Of a DNA stretch of 64,000 nucleotides, positions 2,627 through 58,192 are shown piece by piece. The position numbers and the translations under genes are program-made. Location: assembly GCF_024223415.1 (NCBI RefSeq), contig NZ_CP100500.1; one strand, written 5' to 3'. Each line of letters opens with the position of its first letter. Position 1 is the stretch's first letter. The notes beneath the pieces were generated by a model. It was given only the letters and a program-made list of their open reading frames with translations, searched no databases and was not told the origin of the DNA. The stretch is from Escherichia coli (GTDB lineage: Bacteria; Pseudomonadota; Gammaproteobacteria; Enterobacterales; Enterobacteriaceae).

Positions 2627-4027
2627 ATGAGCGTTGTGCCTGTAGCCGACGTACTCCAGGGCCGCGTAGCCGTTGACAGCGAAGTCACCGTACGCGGATG
2701 GGTACGTACCCGCCGAGATTCAAAAGCTGGCATCTCCTTCCTCGCCGTTTATGACGGTTCCTGCTTTGATCCTGTACAGGCTGTCATCAATAATTCTCTG
2801 CCCAATTACAATGAAGACGTCCTGCGTCTGACCACCGGTTGCTCGGTCATTGTGACGGGTAAAGTCGTGGCGTCGCCGGGCCAGGGGCAACAATTTGAAA
2901 TTCAGGCCAGCAAGGTTGAAGTTGCTGGTTGGGTTGAAGATCCAGACACTTACCCGATGGCGGCAAAACGCCACAGCATTGAGTATCTGCGTGAAGTCGC
3001 TCACCTGCGTCCGCGCACAAACCTGATTGGTGCCGTCGCGCGCGTTCGCCATACGCTGGCGCAGGCGCTGCATCGCTTCTTTAACGAGCAGGGATTCTTC
3101 TGGGTTTCAACGCCACTGATTACTGCGTCTGATACCGAAGGGGCTGGCGAAATGTTCCGCGTTTCTACGCTGGATCTGGAAAATCTGCCGCGTAACGATC
3201 AGGGCAAAGTGGATTTCGACAAAGACTTCTTTGGTAAAGAGTCTTTCCTGACCGTATCTGGCCAGTTGAACGGCGAAACCTACGCTTGCGCATTATCCAA
3301 AATTTATACCTTCGGCCCGACTTTCCGTGCTGAAAACTCCAACACCAGCCGTCACCTGGCGGAATTCTGGATGCTGGAGCCGGAAATGGCGTTTGCTAAC
3401 CTGAACGATATCGCAGGTCTGGCTGAAGCCATGCTGAAATATGTCTTCAAAGCGGTTCTCGAAGAACGCGCTGACGACATGAAATTCTTCTCTGAACGCG
3501 TAGATAAAGATGCCGTTTCACGTCTGGAACGCTTCATTGAAGCCGATTTTGCGCAGGTGGATTACACCGACGCAGTGACCATTCTCGAAAACTGCGGCAG
3601 GAAGTTTGAAAACCCGGTTTACTGGGGCGTTGATCTCTCTTCTGAGCATGAGCGTTATCTGGCGGAAGAACACTTTAAAGCACCGGTAGTGGTTAAAAAC
3701 TATCCGAAAGATATTAAAGCGTTCTATATGCGCCTTAACGAAGACGGTAAAACCGTTGCGGCTATGGACGTTCTGGCTCCGGGCATCGGTGAGATCATTG
3801 GTGGCTCCCAGCGTGAAGAACGTCTGGACGTGCTGGACGAGCGTATGCTGGAAATGGGCCTGAATAAAGAAGATTACTGGTGGTATCGCGATCTGCGTCG
3901 CTACGGTACCGTTCCGCATTCAGGTTTCGGTCTTGGTTTTGAACGCCTGATTGCTTACGTAACTGGTGTGCAAAACGTGCGTGATGTGATTCCGTTCCCA
4001 CGTACTCCGCGTAACGCCAGCTTCTAA
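2627..4027 (+). CDS. asnS: Asparaginyl-tRNA synthetase
   Basis: ORF track 2582..4027; start moved to [16 protein letters not shown]... (466 aa); class II aaRS motifs. Confidence 0.95.
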
Positions 4028-48993: not shown

Positions 48994-49163
48994 AATGGCT
49001 CACTCAAGCTTGCTCACGATTGATTCCAGTAACAAACCGTATTGTGTAATTATTTCTATAGCAGATCGCTATATAGGCTTGTATACATCGAATAATTTGA
49101 AAATCAAAGAGATAGGTAGATTTTCACTCGAAAGTAGTATTACGTGTAAGTGAGGAGTAATTA

Positions 49164-49177
49164 TTGTTCGGTATCAA
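49164..49177 (-). promoter_or_regulatory. FNR-type half-site pair in dmsA promoter
   Basis: TTGTT-CGGT-ATCAA (consensus TTGAT-N4-ATCAA) ~170 bp upstream of dmsA ATG. Confidence 0.5.
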
Positions 49178-49289
49178 AGGGAGACAAAAAAAGCGCCCGC
49201 AGGAGATTTAACGGTACTTACTCCTCTTGCTGATTTCCTTATTTTTCAATAAGTAAACAAAAACAAGGGGAGCAAATTATCACAAATAA

Positions 49290-50285
49290 TTACTGGTCGA
49301 TGGACAGTTTATGGACACTTTCAGCCAGCGGATTAAAGCTGATCGCATCCTGTAAAAAGTCCGGTGAAAAATGCGCATACGTCATCGTTTGCTGAATCGT
49401 GGCGTGACCCAGGATCCTCTGCAACGTGACGATGTTCCCGCCGTTCATCATGAAATGCGTGGCGAACGTGTGCCGCATGACATGCGTGGCCTGCCCTTTG
49501 GGTAAGTCGGGCTTCACCTCCTGAAGGATCTCCCTGAAACTGAGATAATCAACCTGATATAACAGGCCGGTCCGGCGGGTTTTAATTAACGGCACAACGG
49601 AATCAGCTACAGGAACCGAGCGCGATTTCCCGTTCTTTGTGTTAAAGAACGTCACCCTGTTACCCACGATGTGTTCCCCGCGAAGCGTTGACGCCTCTTT
49701 CCATCTGGCCCCGGTCGAAAGGCACAGAATGGCAATGCGTCGTGCATCACCCTCAAGCCGTTTCAGAAGGCGATCAATCTCGTCATCTGAAAGAAAGGCC
49801 ATTTCTGTATTCTGAACCTTGAGTTTACGTATTCCGCGCACAGGGTTTTCGTTATGATAAACCTCCGCGTCAATTAACAACGAAAACATCGCAGATAAGG
49901 CGCACAGGTCGCGATTGATACTGGACGGCATCAGTCCCGCCTGCAACTTATCCGAGCGATACTCAATCATGAATTTTCGTGTCATCTGGCTGGCGCGCGG
50001 GTCCCCCATTTCACGTATCACCTTCTCCAGTCTGGTTCTGTAGGTATCACCATATGCCTGATTACGACCATCAAGCATCCACCACACCTCAATCAGTTCT
50101 GATAACCGCCGTTGATCGGCGGGCCTTGCCTGCCACGGGTTATTGTGGAAATTCTGAAGAACGTATCTTTCGAATTCCTGCGCCTTTGATTTCAGGGTGA
50201 AAATCTTACGAATCCGCCTTCCTCCCGCCCCCTGAGGCCTTACATCAACCTGATAACGTCCGTCTTTGAGTTGCTTAATCGACAT
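49290..50285 (-). CDS. int: P2-family tyrosine integrase
   Basis: ORF track 49290..50294; likely start MSIKQLKDGRY behind GGAGG; catalytic region HVMRHTFATHFMMNGGNI...ILGHATIQQTMTYAHF resembles P2 Int. Confidence 0.9.
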   Translation of the reverse strand: MSIKQLKDGRYQVDVRPQGAGGRRIRKIFTLKSKAQEFERYVLQNFHNNPWQARPADQRRLSELIEVWWMLDGRNQAYGDTYRTRLEKVIREMGDPRASQMTRKFMIEYRSDKLQAGLMPSSINRDLCALSAMFSLLIDAEVYHNENPVRGIRKLKVQNTEMAFLSDDEIDRLLKRLEGDARRIAILCLSTGARWKEASTLRGEHIVGNRVTFFNTKNGKSRSVPVADSVVPLIKTRRTGLLYQVDYLSFREILQEVKPDLPKGQATHVMRHTFATHFMMNGGNIVTLQRILGHATIQQTMTYAHFSPDFLQDAISFNPLAESVHKLSIDQ

Positions 50286-50354
50286 GATCAGCACCTCCGA
50301 CGGATAAACCTGTTAACCCCTGCTTACTGAACGCCGCCCGTTCAATATACAGCG

Positions 50355-50696
50355 TCAGCCAGCATTGCGGCCTGATTGGGGTGATTTTTGGGTATTGCGG
50401 GTTGAAACCTGATCGTCCTCCGACTGCGTGGAGCCATCAAGAGAGAGAGCCGGGGCGATCTGACCGGCAACAGGTAGCGTCTTATCTTTGATTAACCAGA
50501 ACATATATTTTTCAAACCGATCCACTTGAAGGACGGCCTCAACAATCTTTGCTCTGGCGATCTTTTGCCCTGACTCATAATTCCTGACAGTTGCCAGAGA
50601 TAACCCTGTAATATCAGCAAATTGCTTTTGAGTTAGCCCTTCCGTCTTGCGTATCAAACGCAACTTTTTCGCATAGTCTATTGACAAGATACTCAT
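50355..50696 (-). CDS. C: P2 C-type immunity repressor (HTH)
   Basis: 113 aa; HTH LTQKQFADITGLSLATVRNYESG; C-terminal GQIAPAL...SPQSG resembles my recollection of P2 C. Confidence 0.8.
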   Translation of the reverse strand: MSILSIDYAKKLRLIRKTEGLTQKQFADITGLSLATVRNYESGQKIARAKIVEAVLQVDRFEKYMFWLIKDKTLPVAGQIAPALSLDGSTQSEDDQVSTRNTQKSPQSGRNAG

Positions 50697-50799: not shown

Positions 50800-51321
50800 A
50801 TGCGGGAGATTATTGCCGACAAAGAGTTATCTGGCGCTCAACCGGTTCAGGATGATGGCGCGGACAATGAATTCATTGAAGCTGCCAACGACAACGAACA
50901 CCTGGAAACCAAAACCAGACCGTCCTACAAAAAGGGCGCAACCCTACGACTGGACGGCCCAGTCGCAGGACTTGTGTCACTGGAAAAAGGGGCTGCCTAT
51001 CTGGGGGTAACAAAATCTGCGCTACGCGCCGCCATTCAGCGCGGGCAGATGCCGGGTCACAAAACGCGCTCAAATCCCGAAGATGAAAAGTCAGACGGTA
51101 CATGGTGGTTTAACGCCAAAGCCTGGGACGAACTAGCCGACGAACTACTGGAGTGCGAACCGCCAGAGTGGCACAACTGGAAAAGCTACTGGACGTACGA
51201 CCGCAAGAAAAGAAAGTTTTCACCGGCAAACAAGGAGGACTGCCAGACCGTTAAAGGTAAGCAGGTTTACTCCCCCAGAGTTTCAAAACTGGAGCAACTC
51301 AAAAACAACCAGCCCGGCTAA
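50800..51321 (+). CDS. cox: Cox-like excisionase/regulator with N-terminal extension
   Basis: 173 aa, RBS AGAGGA; central HTH LEKGAAYLGVTKSALRAAIQRGQMP and GTWWFNAKAWDELADELLE resemble P2 Cox, which is ~91 aa. Confidence 0.65.
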   Translation: MREIIADKELSGAQPVQDDGADNEFIEAANDNEHLETKTRPSYKKGATLRLDGPVAGLVSLEKGAAYLGVTKSALRAAIQRGQMPGHKTRSNPEDEKSDGTWWFNAKAWDELADELLECEPPEWHNWKSYWTYDRKKRKFSPANKEDCQTVKGKQVYSPRVSKLEQLKNNQPG

Positions 51322-52529: not shown

Positions 52530-52609
52530 ACAGGCGTTTAACACCAGAAACAACCAGAAACATCCGCTCACGCGGAGGGGTTGACCCGCTCAAAAAGGAG
52601 AAATCAGGA

Positions 52610-52903
52610 ATGCTTAATAATAAAAAAAACCGAATCATTGATAACAGTGAACAGGTCAACAAAATAATCGAAGGCACAAACAAATTAATTAAGAAAAAAA
52701 ACAAACTAAGCCGTGAATTAATGGAACATCCGGAAGAAATATTATTAGCCATGATGCACCAGACAGAAGCGATAGCCATCGCCCTTGCCGTGCAGGCGCT
52801 TTCTGAGTTCCGGGAAGAAAACATCAGGCTGGCTCAGGAGCTGAAAAACCTCAGACGTCAGCTTCAGAGCACTGAGGCTGGCACGTCATCACGAATGCAC
52901 TGA
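52610..52903 (+). CDS. Hypothetical protein, Lys-rich N-terminus then helical C-terminus
   Basis: 97 aa, RBS AAAGGAG; 5' half markedly AT-rich compared with neighbours. Confidence 0.55.
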   Translation: MLNNKKNRIIDNSEQVNKIIEGTNKLIKKKNKLSRELMEHPEEILLAMMHQTEAIAIALAVQALSEFREENIRLAQELKNLRRQLQSTEAGTSSRMH

Positions 52904-52913
52904 GGGCCACACC

Positions 52914-53123
52914 ATGACTGCAATTCTGAGAAGACGCAATAAAACGCTTTTTACCGATACATCCGGGATGGAATACGAAGTGGAAAGCAGTGTCATAGCC
53001 ACCACCACCCGATGCCCGGCAGGTGACGAACTGATTTACGTCCACCTGACGGACGGGTCACAGATAACCGTCCTGACAGAGTCATGGCGCGAACTCGAGA
53101 TAATAAGCGAGGTAAGAACATGA
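52914..53123 (+). CDS. Hypothetical early-operon protein
   Basis: 69 aa. Confidence 0.45.
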   Translation: MTAILRRRNKTLFTDTSGMEYEVESSVIATTTRCPAGDELIYVHLTDGSQITVLTESWRELEIISEVRT

Positions 53124-53332
53124 GCAGCAAACACGATACCAACGCACGCAGACCAGGCAAAGAGGCGCGTCACCATATCGCCGTAATGCGCAACCTGCTT
53201 ATGAGTGAAATCGACGATTTTGTGGCAGGCCTGGGGCAACCGGGCGAACCAGCAACACCAGGCCAGATACACAGGGAATTACGCCGCCGCGTGGAAAACG
53301 TCGTGGATTACGTCATAAACCCGAACGACTGA
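53120..53332 (+). CDS. Hypothetical early-operon protein
   Basis: ORF track 53084..53332; preferred start MSSKHDTNARRPGK with ATGA overlap and GAGG RBS. Confidence 0.45.
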   Translation: MSSKHDTNARRPGKEARHHIAVMRNLLMSEIDDFVAGLGQPGEPATPGQIHRELRRRVENVVDYVINPND

Positions 53333-53371
53333 CGGGAACATGGCGAGCGTCAGATGACACACGCAGGGCAC

Positions 53372-53854
53372 TTATCGGGACAAACCGATCGTAATCGCAG
53401 CCATCATCTTTTCAGCGAAAGAGAGAGATTCACGATGACTGATATTCAGAGACATACAGGCTTTGTTGTACGCCACATTTTCCATGCATTCCAGGACAGG
53501 AGAGTCATGCATCTCAAGCTCTGGAAGGCGTGCCAGCAGAGCTTCCGTACTGAGGAGGGCGCTTTTGGTAATCAACTCATTGTAGCGATGGGCATGCTCA
53601 CTCGCCGCCTGCGCACGTTGCCCGAAACGACATATGAAATTACAGGCTCCGAGAACCACCACCACTGCCCCCAGCACCCAGCCGAAATGCCAGCCGGCTA
53701 CGATGAACGCACCCGCCGCAAGGATCAAAATGTTGATGATCGCATCAAGGCGACGATTGAACACCGCCGCGATGCGCTCCAGCCAGTAGCTGTACCAGAG
53801 ACGGAACATGACCTCATCCCGTTCTCTCGATTTTTTACGTTGGTTGTTTTGCAT
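53372..53854 (-). CDS. Membrane protein encoded antisense to the early operon (candidate moron)
   Basis: 160 aa, RBS GAGGG; two clear TM helices (AIINILILAAGAFIVAGW, GWVLGAVVVVLGACNFI); the overlapping + strand ORF 53354..53989 is low-complexity. Confidence 0.55.
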   Translation of the reverse strand: MQNNQRKKSRERDEVMFRLWYSYWLERIAAVFNRRLDAIINILILAAGAFIVAGWHFGWVLGAVVVVLGACNFICRFGQRAQAASEHAHRYNELITKSALLSTEALLARLPELEMHDSPVLECMENVAYNKACMSLNISHRESLSFAEKMMAAITIGLSR

Positions 53855-54088
53855 GGTGTTTTATCCCTCATCGTCATCGCTCTGCCCCTAATCAGCGCAG
53901 AGTGCAGGGTAACCTGGCTCGTGGAATTTTTGCAGCCAGACATCTTTACCCCCGGGCGTGTTGAACAAAGTGTCCGCCAGATCCACTGAACGGCGGATTC
54001 ATCAATGCTAACACGCCCTTCTTTTCCGGTTGAAGGCGAAAAAACCGGACCATTACCCCGACACAAAACAGAACAACGGAGAACAACT

Positions 54089-54643
54089 ATGCCCGCACTT
54101 AAACCTATGGGTGTATCAGGTGTACCACCGAAGCATGTCAGAGCCTGGACACAACAGGAAGATGCTCTACTGGTCGGTTTATACCCCTCCCACACCGTAC
54201 CAGAACTGACAAAACACTTTCAGAGAACCGGGCCAGCAATACGAAGCCGCATCCGTCTTTTGCTCTCTCAGGGGGTTATCCACACCAAACAACCCCCCCT
54301 GAATACAAAAGAACTCAACACGCTCATCAGGAATCGCCACACAAAAACCATCCGGGAACTCGCGAATGAACTGGGGCGCTCGACATCCACGGTGGGACTG
54401 AACCTGAGAAAAAGAGGGTACCGGTTCAGGAAATACGGGGAACTCCACCACAGAGCCAGATACAGCGATCACCTGGTGGAGTTGGTAACTGAACTGCGCG
54501 ATGAACAGGGGATGACATTCAGCGAAATCAGAAAGTACATCCGGGACACGACCGGGATATCCCTTAAAAGATGGGTCCTCGCCCGGCTTTACGCACGATA
54601 TACCGCCGCTGACACCGTGCTTTGCGAACTGCTACCGGACTGA
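54089..54643 (+). CDS. Putative DNA-binding protein with three HTH-like repeats
   Basis: ORF track 54005..54643; start moved to MPALKPMGVSG behind GGAGAA; repeated helix-turn-helix-like segments (..TVPELTKHFQRTGPAIRSRIRLL.., ..TIRELANELGRSTSTVGLNLRKRG.., ..TFSEIRKYIRDTTGISLKRW..). Confidence 0.55.
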   Translation: MPALKPMGVSGVPPKHVRAWTQQEDALLVGLYPSHTVPELTKHFQRTGPAIRSRIRLLLSQGVIHTKQPPLNTKELNTLIRNRHTKTIRELANELGRSTSTVGLNLRKRGYRFRKYGELHHRARYSDHLVELVTELRDEQGMTFSEIRKYIRDTTGISLKRWVLARLYARYTAADTVLCELLPD

Positions 54644-54966
54644 GTAACCACTATGCACACACAAAAAAACCGCTTGCCATGCCGCAATCAGTCAGGTTAC
54701 ATTTCCGCTGCACCTCATAAAACGGGTGCCGGGATTGCAACCCCCGCTGACAAACGAAGCGCACAACCGCGCCAGCGGTTTTTTTGTGCGTACCGTATCG
54801 CCACGTCTTTTTCGCACCAGAATTATGGTGGGGCGTACGGGGCCGACTTCGGTCGGGCCGGTTTCTTCGTTTGCCGGTGGTTGCAACCCTGTACGTCTCG
54901 CCACCCAGAATTGCAACCTCTGGATGGTGAGTATCCAAAAACTCACAAACGAAGAGGCCAAACACC

Positions 54967-55194
54967 ATGGCAAACCGCAAACAACAGCGCGCATACGCTG
55001 CGCGTCGTCACATCCAGACTGAAATCAACCGCAGACTTTCCCGCGCATTCCGCGTCGCGCATATCATGCACATCAATATGCTGCATGAGCGCAGCCACGC
55101 ACTGTCAAACATGTATTCCGCCGCTGTATTCAGCTACCTGGCGGATGACCTGCGCAAGCTGCAGGACCTCATTAACCAGCACTACCACCACTAA
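54967..55194 (+). CDS. Hypothetical early-operon protein
   Basis: 75 aa, basic, RBS GAAGAGG. Confidence 0.5.
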   Translation: MANRKQQRAYAARRHIQTEINRRLSRAFRVAHIMHINMLHERSHALSNMYSAAVFSYLADDLRKLQDLINQHYHH

Positions 55195-55262
55195 TCAACA
55201 TCCCGGAGCCATCCCGCCCCCGTACGCGGGAGGCTTCCGCACGTCCGTTTCCGGAGGTTCTC

Positions 55263-55676
55263 ATGAAGAGCGTTAAGGGACTTTCAGATATTCAGGATTT
55301 TTTTAACTGGATGTGGGCGGTGGATCCACGCCTCGCTTCCCGTCTCAATGACCTGCATGACTATTACCGCCGCGCCTGTAAACAGGCCGCCAGCAGCGCC
55401 ACCACATACGGGAATTTTTCCTTCACCGTTGATGACCGTTACCGCGTGGATGTCAGAGACCAGAACCACAGCATGGTGCTGGGCCTGTTCCACATCAACG
55501 GGTGCGACAGCAGCGTTATCAGCTGGTCATCGTCAGAAATGGTGCTCGTTCTGGAAATGACCACCCACAGCGTGGTCGTGAAAGGGATTAAAACAGCAGA
55601 AGACTTTATCGCTGAATACCAGCGCCTTCTTGTGCTGTACCGGGCTGCATTTGAGAAGGCAACAGCAGGGGAGTAA
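55263..55676 (+). CDS. Hypothetical protein immediately upstream of A
   Basis: 137 aa, RBS GGAGG. Confidence 0.55.
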   Translation: MKSVKGLSDIQDFFNWMWAVDPRLASRLNDLHDYYRRACKQAASSATTYGNFSFTVDDRYRVDVRDQNHSMVLGLFHINGCDSSVISWSSSEMVLVLEMTTHSVVVKGIKTAEDFIAEYQRLLVLYRAAFEKATAGE

Positions 55677-55681
55677 GCGGA

Positions 55682-58192
55682 ATGAGCCATCACCACACGC
55701 ACCTGGCGTACCCGTGGAACGCCCCGCTGCCGGTTATTGATCCTGAGACATTCGGCAGAGCATTACCGCAGAAGCCAACCGCATTACAACGGGCAATCCG
55801 TGACTACCTCACCGAAGACATTCGCACTGAGGCCCGGCTGGATGAAGAAACCGTGGCCTTCCTGACAACCACGGACAAAGGTAAGCAAATTAATTCACAC
55901 CTTCACCGGGACGAAGAGCGGCAGATAAGGCTGGATAAGCTGGCACGACACAGACGCGAAAATCCGCCAACGGCGGTATCGGAGGCGATAGCCGAACTTC
56001 GCACCCTGCCCTCGTTTCTTGCCAGTGTGTTGATCCGTGATCTGGCACGACTGAACCGGAAACAGCAAAGTGCCCGCAGTGAAGGTGTAAAAAACAACAG
56101 CGCATACGTGGCCGATAATTTCGTTCGCCGTGGACTGCGTGCGCGCCTGAAACGTATTGAAAGGGTTAACGACCGCTTTGCAACGCCGGCATTCAAAACC
56201 ACCGTCGTGCGCCATCGCCTTGAAGAACTGCTCACACTGCCGCAACTCACCCGTGACGAAATCCAGCGCATCGCCACACTGACAGCCCAGGCATTCGCCG
56301 CAGAATTTGAACGCATATGTGATGAAGTTCTTGAACGGACAGGCAAGGATAATGACAGCCCGGTTATCTGGCTGCTGGCCTACCAGAAGGTGGCACGCAC
56401 AGCCTTAATTCTGGGCGTGGTCCCGCCATACTGGCCGGAACTCGAAATCAGGCACAACCGACGCACACCGCCGGACCCTGAACGGGTTCCGGGTGCGGTA
56501 CTGCGCATCACCTGCGCGACCTGGTGGAACAACCAGTTACGCCACGTCGCCGATCTCTGGCGGGAGGAGTTACTGCGCGCCGCCGGCAGAGTGTCACGTA
56601 AACAATCCCCCTATATCAGCCATGAGTCACTACTGGAGTTCCGCGAGAAGCGCCAGCGCACCCGTGACTTTCTCAAAAGCTGGGATATTGAAAACGAAGA
56701 CGGCGAGCGCCTGAGTCTGGAGGACGTGTACTGGGCTGGCCTGGGTAATCCACGCAACCGCCGCAATGAAATGATGGTCTGCGTCAGAGGGATGGAGATG
56801 GTGGCCGAATTACGGGCTGACGTCGCATTCTTCATCACAGTAACCACCCCTTCCCGCTTTCACAGCGTGAACGAGAACGGCAGCCTGAACCCGAAATACA
56901 ACGGTGCCACAGTACGAGATGCCAGTGATTATCTGGTTTACGACTTCTTCGCAGCCGTAAGAAAAAAAATAAAAAAAGAGGGGCTGGGCTGGTACGGCGT
57001 GCGAACCGCTGAGCCACACCATGACGGCACGCCACACTGGCATATGCTGGTATTCACTTCCCCGGAGAACGCAGAGCGCATCATCGAAATTATGCGCGAA
57101 GCAGCAATTAAATCAGATCGCCACGAACTGGGGGACGATATTTCACCGCGCTTTAAATGCGAGAAGATAGACCCGGAAAAAGGCACACCGGCAAGCTATA
57201 TCGCAACCTATATCGGTAAGAACCTGGACGCCAGCGCTTTCCACAACAATGATCCGAAAACCGGAAAACCTTACGTTGATGAGGAATCCGGGAAAACCAT
57301 GGCGGAAACCGTGGAGAACGCCATTGCCTGGGCAAGCCTTCACCGCATCCGTCAGTTCCAGTTTTTCGGCATTCCGCCCCGCCAGGTATGGCGTGAACTC
57401 CGCCGCCTTGCAAGCCAGATGGAGCGCAACCCGGCATCACCGAAGCACCTCGATCATGACGATATTGACGCCATTATGGCTGCCGCAGATGTGGGATGTT
57501 TTGCCACCTACATCATGAAACAGGGTGGTGTGCTCATTCCGCGCAACCAGTATCTGGTCCGCACCGCATACGAAACCGCAGACGAAGCCAACGACTACGG
57601 TGAATTCCCTCAACGTATCTACGGAATCTGCGCCCCGTCGCTCGGAGAGCGGTACACCATATGCACCCATCCGGACGAGTGGAAACTGGTTAAAAAAGAA
57701 ACAACACCAGACAACCGCACGGGCGAGGGTTTTGACCTTCAGGGCGACCCCGTCGCCCCTTGGACTCGTGGCAATAACTGTCCCCGGGATGAAAAAACAG
57801 ACAATCACGGACCAGAAAACAGGCAGGACCCCGGACGACTGACGCTTCCCGAAGAGAACCTGGAAAGCTGGCTGAATACGTTAAGCAGGGGCGATCGGAG
57901 AAAACTGCGTAATCAGATTAAAAATCAGCCGTCGGGCGCAAAAACCGGACAAAACGACACCACACCGGCATCTGACACCCCTGTAAGGGTGGGGATTGTC
58001 GTGCCTGCGGATACCGCGACGGACACGCAAATCGCCCGCGAACTTGATGCGCTGGGTGTGCAGTTGCCTGACGCGGCCATCATCTCCGTGCGTAACGGTG
58101 CCCGTGTGCGTCTGGATAACGGGGGAACAGCGTACTGGGATGAGTCAGCCCGTCACATCATCACAGAGCAGCCAGTGGAGGCGGGAGCATGA
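55682..58192 (+). CDS. A: P2 gpA-like rolling-circle replication initiator
   Basis: 836 aa; HUH-type motif TPHWHMLVF and paired tyrosines YIATYIGKN; larger than P2 A (~761 aa as I recall). Confidence 0.9.
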   Translation: MSHHHTHLAYPWNAPLPVIDPETFGRALPQKPTALQRAIRDYLTEDIRTEARLDEETVAFLTTTDKGKQINSHLHRDEERQIRLDKLARHRRENPPTAVSEAIAELRTLPSFLASVLIRDLARLNRKQQSARSEGVKNNSAYVADNFVRRGLRARLKRIERVNDRFATPAFKTTVVRHRLEELLTLPQLTRDEIQRIATLTAQAFAAEFERICDEVLERTGKDNDSPVIWLLAYQKVARTALILGVVPPYWPELEIRHNRRTPPDPERVPGAVLRITCATWWNNQLRHVADLWREELLRAAGRVSRKQSPYISHESLLEFREKRQRTRDFLKSWDIENEDGERLSLEDVYWAGLGNPRNRRNEMMVCVRGMEMVAELRADVAFFITVTTPSRFHSVNENGSLNPKYNGATVRDASDYLVYDFFAAVRKKIKKEGLGWYGVRTAEPHHDGTPHWHMLVFTSPENAERIIEIMREAAIKSDRHELGDDISPRFKCEKIDPEKGTPASYIATYIGKNLDASAFHNNDPKTGKPYVDEESGKTMAETVENAIAWASLHRIRQFQFFGIPPRQVWRELRRLASQMERNPASPKHLDHDDIDAIMAAADVGCFATYIMKQGGVLIPRNQYLVRTAYETADEANDYGEFPQRIYGICAPSLGERYTICTHPDEWKLVKKETTPDNRTGEGFDLQGDPVAPWTRGNNCPRDEKTDNHGPENRQDPGRLTLPEENLESWLNTLSRGDRRKLRNQIKNQPSGAKTGQNDTTPASDTPVRVGIVVPADTATDTQIARELDALGVQLPDAAIISVRNGARVRLDNGGTAYWDESARHIITEQPVEAGA

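Follow-up and report, generated by a model that had tools for sequence, protein, structure and literature searches.

A SLATT-like membrane-protein gene opposite a persistently open reading frame in the early operon of a P2-like prophage

Among the early genes of a P2-like prophage in Escherichia coli (contig NZ_CP100500.1) is one for a small inner-membrane protein that is read backwards relative to its neighbours. We analysed a 64,000-nucleotide (nt) stretch of this contig, hereafter the window, in which this gene of 160 amino acids (aa) occupies the minus strand and an open reading frame (ORF) of 211 aa lies codon-on-codon antisense to it in the sense of the operon. On balance, the locus is probably best explained as a SLATT-like effector cassette expressed from the prophage, faced by a translational bridge that would protect early transcripts from Rho-dependent polarity. 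Because of the codon-on-codon register, the rightward ORF (53354-53989) can be open only if the membrane gene avoids the codons TTA, CTA and TCA. Counted over whole genes from 11 P2-like lineages, six such codons were observed against 69.7 expected from the codon usage of neighbouring genes, and 14 of 15 P2-family lineages have the rightward frame open, with an ATG start.

An inner-membrane hairpin protein encoded against the operon

The membrane ORF, which starts with ATG, aligns end to end with phrog_6315 (E 1.3e-65), and searching 1.84 billion representatives with a profile recovered 162 clusters of homologues at E<=1e-3, nearly all of 150-165 aa; these matches place the ORF far beyond chance. 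Its Shine-Dalgarno (SD) sequence, GAGGGA, has a GAGGA or GAGGG equivalent in relatives. Kyte-Doolittle hydropathy indicates two adjacent hydrophobic helices at residues ~36-56 and ~58-78, and AlphaFold, run with the family alignment, returned a helical hairpin at these transmembrane (TM) segments with a predicted local distance difference test (pLDDT) score of 95.6. The modelled helices (residues 2-52, 58-75, 77-99, 103-114, 123-135 and 146-155) comprise a long N-terminal helix continuous with TM1, then TM2 after a sharp turn, and four cytoplasmic helices, the N- and C-terminal helical parts being predicted to be cytoplasmic by the positive-inside rule. All seven near-invariant residues of the family (E26, R35, G62, Y91, L94, D117 and A128) are present in the window protein. 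These results bear out the initial annotation, which had described a 160-aa ORF with two TM helices and its own ribosome-binding site, and establish a real gene for an inner-membrane hairpin protein. The Prokaryotic Genome Annotation Pipeline (PGAP) calls a hypothetical protein of 146 aa in the same frame, from Met16; conservation among homologues extends upstream of that residue, which makes Met1 the better start.

The antisense position in a rightward early region had likewise been correctly described. All early genes around the insert, from Cox (50800) to gpA, are on the plus strand, and the gap in rightward genes, previously put at about 750 bp, measures 756 bp from the end of the upstream gene at 53332 to the next conserved start at 54089. 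This latter start, of a DNA-binding gene, was placed at 54089 because the homologue in Citrobacter phage Shae_phiSM has 183 aa. PGAP gives the gene a longer version of 212 aa, from 54005; the homologues, 183-184 aa long, point to 54089.

In a Foldseek search of AFDB50, the best matches to the membrane protein (TM-scores of 0.80-0.93) were same-size enterobacterial proteins, many of them named SLATT or DUF4231 and one named 'Fels-2 prophage protein'; the proteins with these names scored 0.85-0.93. The protein has the SLATT layout of two adjacent TM helices with flanking helices in a domain of ~130-160 aa, and sub-threshold matches to the SLATT_1 and SLATT_4 models recur in it and in six relatives (15-21 bits for the relatives, up to 21 bits for SLATT_4, against cut-offs of 41-55). 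The family consists of prophage proteins and is a set of distant structural and sequence relatives of the SLATT two-TM effector domains. We therefore call the window protein SLATT-like, meaning that it probably acts as SLATT membrane effectors do and not that it is a demonstrated member of that family.

Four search results count against this assignment. The match of the window protein to the curated NCBIfam model SLATT_1 reached only E 0.006 and 16.5 bits (cut-off 41); a Pfam search gave it no match, and 1 of 80 relatives reached E<=0.1, to SLATT_fungal; PADLOC returned noise only (LeoBC, E 0.018); and no SMODS/CD-NTase, SLOG, TIR or reverse transcriptase (RT) partner lies in the window or in ~60 fetched loci. 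Sequence and fold searches of the PDB with the protein also gave no match and no solved structure. Burroughs et al. in 2015 reportedly described SLATT proteins that accompany CD-NTase, TIR and RT systems. The window protein resembles such effectors in its length of ~150 aa, its tight two-TM hairpin between cytoplasmic helices, its carriage by a prophage, its weak recurrent profile matches and the names of its nearest models. Unlike them, it falls below the curated thresholds and outside Pfam, and its family never stands beside a nucleotide-generating or RT partner, being found alone or with proline-rich micro-ORFs.

A micro-ORF is the only constant neighbour of the membrane gene across loci, and the cassette in relatives consists of two genes, a proline-rich, acidic-tailed micro-ORF followed by the membrane gene. 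Alignment of upstream regions located this micro-ORF, of 27-40 aa, in the P2-like group as well as in a distant subfamily, ending 2-12 nt before the membrane-gene ATG; it may serve as a regulator, an antitoxin or a stalling leader. Its peptides, such as MSDSDKFHVPRQPAPAPEKGQGRDDEEG and MKNYSDYEERHMSPFKRPEPPKPDDED, have an invariant His, a P-x-P motif and an acidic tail; it has an AAGGAG-type SD, and its substitutions are enriched at third codon positions. The distant subfamily has a second micro-ORF just past the membrane gene (loci L039-L057, L064 and L067), 4-9 nt after the membrane-gene stop or overlapping it, with the consensus M[IV]ERAGGHKPxxPRPPxPxKP and, for example, the sequence MIERAGGHKPTQPRPPVQPSPRPQG. 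We take its PRPP core to resemble proline-rich antimicrobial peptides that bind the ribosome, a likeness that hints at control by ribosome stalling.

In the window, the first micro-ORF is inactivated. A 1-nt deletion follows ~4 codons after the ancestral ATG at 53943, the KFHEP motif is at 53929-53915, and an in-frame TAG at 53890-53888 precedes the ancestral stop at ~53863-53861. The lesions are identical in lineages L001 and L014-16 and are common to all copies of the window lineage. A minus-strand ORF of 156 aa (53725-54195) is an artefact of the frameshifted micro-ORF. The frame from the ancestral ATG is out of phase across the membrane-gene start and could interfere with translation of the membrane gene.

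The cassette is an accessory insert, placed backwards in the early operon. The membrane gene is present in 31 of 5,426 complete E. coli genomes (26 nearly identical copies and 5 at 65-68% DNA identity) and, among isolated phages, in Yersinia phage vB_YenM_42.18 only. Other P2-like prophages, and 186-like ones, have homologues set antisense among their early genes; further homologues come from Mu-like and lambdoid prophages, and the neighbours differ from one context to the next. Shae_phiSM (Peduoviridae) has no cassette at the corresponding junction, where its DNA-binding gene, 90% identical, lies 14 nt past an ead/Ea22 gene. The patchy distribution supports the proposal of the initial annotation that the gene is a moron-like insert, for which presence or absence in related prophages had been suggested as a check. 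A scan of species-representative genomes yielded only two loci, both of lineages already sampled (Kosakonia, Serratia). No empty site with the same left flank was found, as this flank (52600-53345) is confined to the 26 genomes with nearly identical copies, all of which have the gene.

The P2 morons old, tin and fun, and small inner-membrane superinfection-exclusion or abortive-infection (Abi) proteins such as P22 SieA, T4 Imm and lambda RexB, provide a comparison. Like them, the window gene is accessory, variably present and borne by a temperate phage, and its small membrane product would suit phage exclusion. Unlike them, it lies antisense within the early operon rather than in the cos-proximal hotspot, and its product has no sequence relation to theirs. 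The P2 defence hotspot adjoins cos (Rousset et al. 2022, PMC9122126).

Possible roles of the cassette

By analogy, we infer that the membrane protein may be a prophage-expressed, membrane-perturbing exclusion or Abi effector, and a membrane-acting role of this kind plausibly fits the distant SLATT resemblance. For leftward expression of the cassette, we identified a candidate extended -10 element, TGTTAGCAT, in a TGnTAnnnT block ~150 nt upstream of the membrane gene that is conserved in the upstream alignment of 12 lineages. Two observations speak against a working, prophage-expressed cassette in the window: a sigma-70 consensus promoter scan of 52800-54400 found no site, and the broken micro-ORF may mean that the cassette is decaying. 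Terminator-like matches in the same interval were not convincingly above shuffles, with no terminator evident past 53372, and no LexA box (CTGT-N8-ACAG) lies near the locus. During lytic growth, early transcription running antisense through the gene might silence it, as the initial annotation proposed.

Our verdict is that the cassette is partly decayed in the window lineage. A stronger version, in which it is a decaying remnant whose membrane gene is misexpressed or misregulated and persists only since the bridge frame must stay open, is a doubtful though serious alternative. It draws on the two independent micro-ORF lesions fixed in all copies, and on the prospect that ribosomes starting at the old ATG run out of frame across the membrane-gene start through the 53725-54195 frame. 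However, the membrane ORF is intact, with all seven near-invariant residues, and has its own good SD; furthermore, the L031/L076 lineage keeps the gene although it lacks the micro-ORF.

It is unlikely, in our estimate, that the cassette has no anti-phage role and is instead an addiction module, in which the micro-ORF peptide restrains a membrane toxin, or a membrane function of the phage life cycle such as lysis timing or an effect on host physiology. The arrangement of a small gene followed at 2-12 nt by a larger one is typical of antitoxin-toxin pairs, one subfamily has the second proline-rich micro-ORF past the gene, PADLOC gave no match, and the cassette lies outside the known cos-adjacent P2 defence hotspot (PMC9122126). 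Yet in 26 genomes the membrane gene is intact although the micro-ORF is broken, which is hard to square with an essential antitoxin: the two intact genes of a type II toxin-antitoxin system are found in relatives and not in the window, where the frameshift and the TAG intervene. When the micro-ORF was fused by a linker to the membrane protein, AlphaFold gave no confident docking (peptide pLDDT 45-57). The antisense, variable and prophage-borne pattern is, moreover, typical of morons expressed in the lysogen.

Read as an effector, the cassette of one or two proline-rich micro-ORFs and a SLATT-like two-TM protein, which is widespread in enterobacterial prophages, absent from PADLOC and of unknown function in PHROGs, is a candidate single-effector exclusion or Abi module. 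A SLATT-5 protein is the effector of DRT10/UG17, and SLATT proteins are pore formers by prediction only, with their activation an open question (preprint 10.64898/2026.04.29.721553). The cassette offers a simple system for this question of SLATT-type control, left open by the DRT10 work.

The open frame opposite the membrane gene

The rightward ORF begins with ATG, 21 nt past the stop of the preceding gene (53332), reads across both the membrane gene and what is left of the micro-ORF, and ends just before the candidate -10 element. In the window, the membrane gene, with 18 Leu and 11 Ser codons, contains no TTA, CTA or TCA against 6.1 expected. The 11 P2-like lineages behind the whole-gene count share 26-75% amino-acid identity, with third positions near saturation, and all six residual codons lie at codons >=142, at the 3' end of the membrane gene and upstream of the bridge ATG. 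A 'covered part' statistic (0 against 65.4) was set aside as circular by construction, and the whole-gene counts were used instead. The depletion also holds under a null of each gene's own third-position A usage; for example, lineage L007 has no TTA among 12 TTR Leu codons, and L011 has no taboo codon against 6-10 expected at a third-position GC content of 0.36. As a control, 17 loci of the second subfamily from other prophage contexts gave observed-to-expected ratios of 0.49-2.11, with stops throughout; depletion differs between the two subfamilies with a Mann-Whitney p = 5e-6, the lineages not being fully independent.

Starts are maintained as well as openness. An ATG-started ORF of 175-455 aa is present on the operon strand in every lineage of this set, and in 11 of the first 12 lineages its ATG lies 0-7 codons past the preceding in-frame stop, several with GGAGG-type SDs. 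Among lineages added later, L074/75 (186-like) have 0 taboo codons against 12-14 expected, L081 has 0 against 5.5 and L076/77 have 1 against 7-8; in L074, the bridge ATG is 2 nt past the stop of a cII-like gene. These comparisons of sequence indicate that, in most P2-family lineages, selection has preserved the openness of the rightward ORF. The initial annotation, which saw no convincing rightward gene here and treated the rightward ORF as a rival to the membrane gene, does not stand on this point, as both strands matter.

Five points temper this conclusion. Among the long ORFs of the window, 47 of 289 windows of 160 codons (16%) also lack TTA, CTA and TCA, so that the window alone is not decisive; the bridge ATG in the window has a weak SD only; and lineage kinship overstates independence in the tests, an effect limited by the near-saturated synonymous sites. 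Some embedded copies are not open, with 5 taboo codons against 7.9 expected in L078/79 (P2/186-like) and 11 against 3.1 in L080 (Mu-like), while copies at prophage ends are nearly open in some cases (1 against 5.0 in L072). Operon embedding is thus neither sufficient nor strictly necessary for an open frame.

The amino acids of the rightward frame are free to vary, within what the synonymous sites of the membrane gene permit. At conserved four-fold sites, third-position identity is 0.364 against 0.296 expected from composition, compared with 0.330 against 0.258 in controls, and the identity of the antisense protein between lineages equals that of simulations in which the membrane protein was fixed and synonymous codons were drawn at random (mean z 1.0). 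Neither analysis found purifying selection on the amino acids of the rightward ORF. Its C-terminal extensions past the membrane gene range from 15 to 278 codons, vary in sequence and cannot be aligned, and its antisense part matched no PHROG or other family. An unconserved protein in an open frame argues for selection on translatability and against true dual coding.

True dual coding, in which 53354-53989 would encode a functional protein overprinted on the membrane gene, is accordingly improbable. The frame is kept as an ATG-started ORF with an SD in several lineages, and the GenBank annotators of vB_YenM_42.18 chose this strand. The identity between lineages is nevertheless what the membrane-protein amino acids and random synonymous codons would produce, third positions are as free as in controls, and length and fusion partners vary from 211 aa in the window to 455 aa in L002. 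Antisense overlapping genes (OLGs) have been reported in E. coli (for example, PMC9927249 and PMC5960689). As in those reports, two long opposite-strand ORFs occupy one locus and the second is apparently translated; OLG claims, in contrast, propose a functional second protein, whereas the evidence here points to selection on translatability alone, across many diverged lineages.

The Yersinia phage record (OM046624.1, positions 2950-3615; lineage L011) calls the operon-sense ORF as vBYenM4218_008, of 221 aa, and omits the opposite-strand membrane gene, whose 155-aa product is 41% identical to that of the window. Gene callers thus differ on the strand, with GenBank giving the bridge ORF for this phage and PGAP giving the membrane gene with a shortened start.

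It is very unlikely that the open frame is a chance or compositional shadow of the membrane gene. This reading starts from the rule that, of all frames, the one antisense in codon-on-codon register is always the most open; it needs only three codons to be absent, can appeal to the 16% of windows without them, to an A-rich plus strand that leaves the minus-strand gene poor in A-ending codons and to the exceptions L078 and L080, but it does not account for 6 codons against ~70 expected at near-saturated synonymous sites, for a depletion that survives the third-position A correction, for an undepleted control subfamily, or for residual stops found solely before an ORF whose ATGs cluster beside the preceding stop.

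A proposed translational bridge and its surroundings

Regulatory RNAs lie directly downstream. Sequences matching isrK and C4 RNA lie between the DNA-binding gene and a derepression gene, a P4/P1-type RNA immunity module within a P2-like prophage (Table 1); the Rfam models concerned detect relatives of P4 seqA and CI (PMC10111431). The plus-strand ORFs 53354-53989, 54005-54643 and 54653-55276 are consecutive, separated by gaps of 15 and 9 nt. The second owes its position to the 28 extra in-frame codons (54005-54088) of the PGAP version of the DNA-binding gene, which begin 16 nt past the bridge ORF stop, so that the plus strand is almost continuously translatable. The bridge and the ORF over C4 are fused as a single frame in L002 (455 aa) and L031 (370 aa). 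The 207-aa ORF over isrK and C4 is junk-like, its 'transcriptional regulator' PHROG matches falling on the RNA segment only. It was rejected as independent evidence of an open frame: lineages hardly differ in this DNA (582 records at >=99%), and the openness of the ORF is therefore inherited.

During lytic growth, the early transcript would have to traverse the insert to reach the replication genes (gpA). The rightward ORF may serve as a translational bridge across it, translated solely to keep ribosomes coupled to RNA polymerase, and such coupling would prevent the transcript from being cut by Rho-dependent polarity or by C4/CI-type RNA-directed termination. Translation keeps Rho off Rho-utilisation (rut) sites, and Rho polarity, an effect that P4 Psu suppresses, acts on P2 operons (PMC12360218). 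The plus-strand C/G ratio reaches 2.1 at 53640-53719 and 3.4 at 54280-54359, values that are suggestive only. We infer the bridge from the open and unconstrained frame, from isrK and C4 downstream, and from the P4 and Rho precedents.

In the P4 left operon, Forti et al. in 1999 reportedly found that Rho-dependent termination at timm is averted when eta is translated through kil, and that CI RNA blocks this translation and permits termination; control of this operon, with CI RNA, the seqA and seqC targets, timm and the nested genes eta and kil, is reportedly also the subject of Sabbattini et al. in 1995. The window resembles that operon in having C4 RNA and seqA-like isrK just downstream, in a long ORF that runs from an upstream start through the regulated region (the 207-aa ORF resembles P4 eta), and in the proposed logic by which translation from an upstream start would make the transcript resistant to termination. 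It differs in that the presumed translated stretch also crosses a whole foreign gene, in antisense, and is unconstrained in sequence, and in that the host element is a P2-like phage and not a satellite.

More generally, it is quite possible, if short of probable, that backward inserts in phage operons are tolerated by way of a bridge ORF that has a start codon, no stops and an unconstrained product, and that is maintained solely so that ribosomes accompany RNA polymerase over the insert and guard the transcript against Rho and against C4-type RNA-directed termination. On the same tentative footing, the inserted gene would pay by never using TTA, CTA or TCA, a codon taboo that would reflect selection for translatability. 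If the bridge is true, some antisense 'overlapping genes' and 'shadow ORFs' would be selected for translation and not for their product. The roughly dozen diverged lineages, in which the opposite strand stays open while the protein drifts, form a natural experiment on overlapping frames. Codon taboos could expose needs for transcription-translation coupling on the opposite strand, which would make Rho polarity testable from sequence.

Table 1 Features of the prophage locus in window coordinates
Feature	Position	Strand	Remarks
P2-like prophage	49.2-64 kb		integrated; adjoins dmsA
Integrase	49290-50294	-	
C-type repressor	50355-50696	-	
Cox	50800-51321	+	followed by a run of small rightward early genes
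phrog_4144 gene	53084-53332	+	last conserved early gene before the insert
Bridge ORF, operon sense, 211 aa	53354-53989	+	opposite the membrane gene, in codon-on-codon register
SLATT-like two-TM membrane-protein gene, 160 aa	53372-53854	-	
TM1 of membrane protein	53749-53687	-	hydropathy
TM2 of membrane protein	53683-53621	-	hydropathy
Micro-ORF remnant, inactivated	53861-53943	-	alignment with intact relatives
SD of membrane gene, GAGGGA	53869-53864	-	8-9 nt upstream of ATG, read from sequence
Candidate extended -10 element	54005-54013	-	for the leftward cassette
D5-like DNA-binding/transcriptional-regulator gene	54089-54643	+	phrog_323, E 2e-27; first conserved rightward gene past the insert
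Long operon-sense ORF, 207 aa	54653-55276	+	overlies isrK, C4 RNA and derepression gene
isrK	54710-54785	+	Rfam 61.9 bits, gathering score 50
C4 antisense RNA	54821-54908	+	Rfam 79.3 bits, gathering score 45
Derepression gene, 75 aa	54967-55194		phrog_3688; different frame from the 207-aa ORF
Replication endonuclease gpA	55682-58192	+	portal and terminase genes lie beyond it

Several further observations concern the surroundings of the cassette. At the left prophage end, the intergenic region between dmsA and the integrase gene contains a full-length match (125.8 bits) to the enterobacterial small RNA STnc130 at 49084-49218 (+). In strain F11 (NZ_CP184143.1, match H65), an IS5 transposase disrupts early genes just upstream of the cassette. 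The L078 locus (CP053012.1, 6460-7293), from the one P2/186-like lineage whose bridge frame is not open, has a gene with an Abi_alpha domain and other extra genes between integrase and repressor, and in L002 (CP027323.1, 438-1186), as in L013, a toxin-antitoxin-like TumE-family/HVO_A0114 pair lies downstream of gpA.

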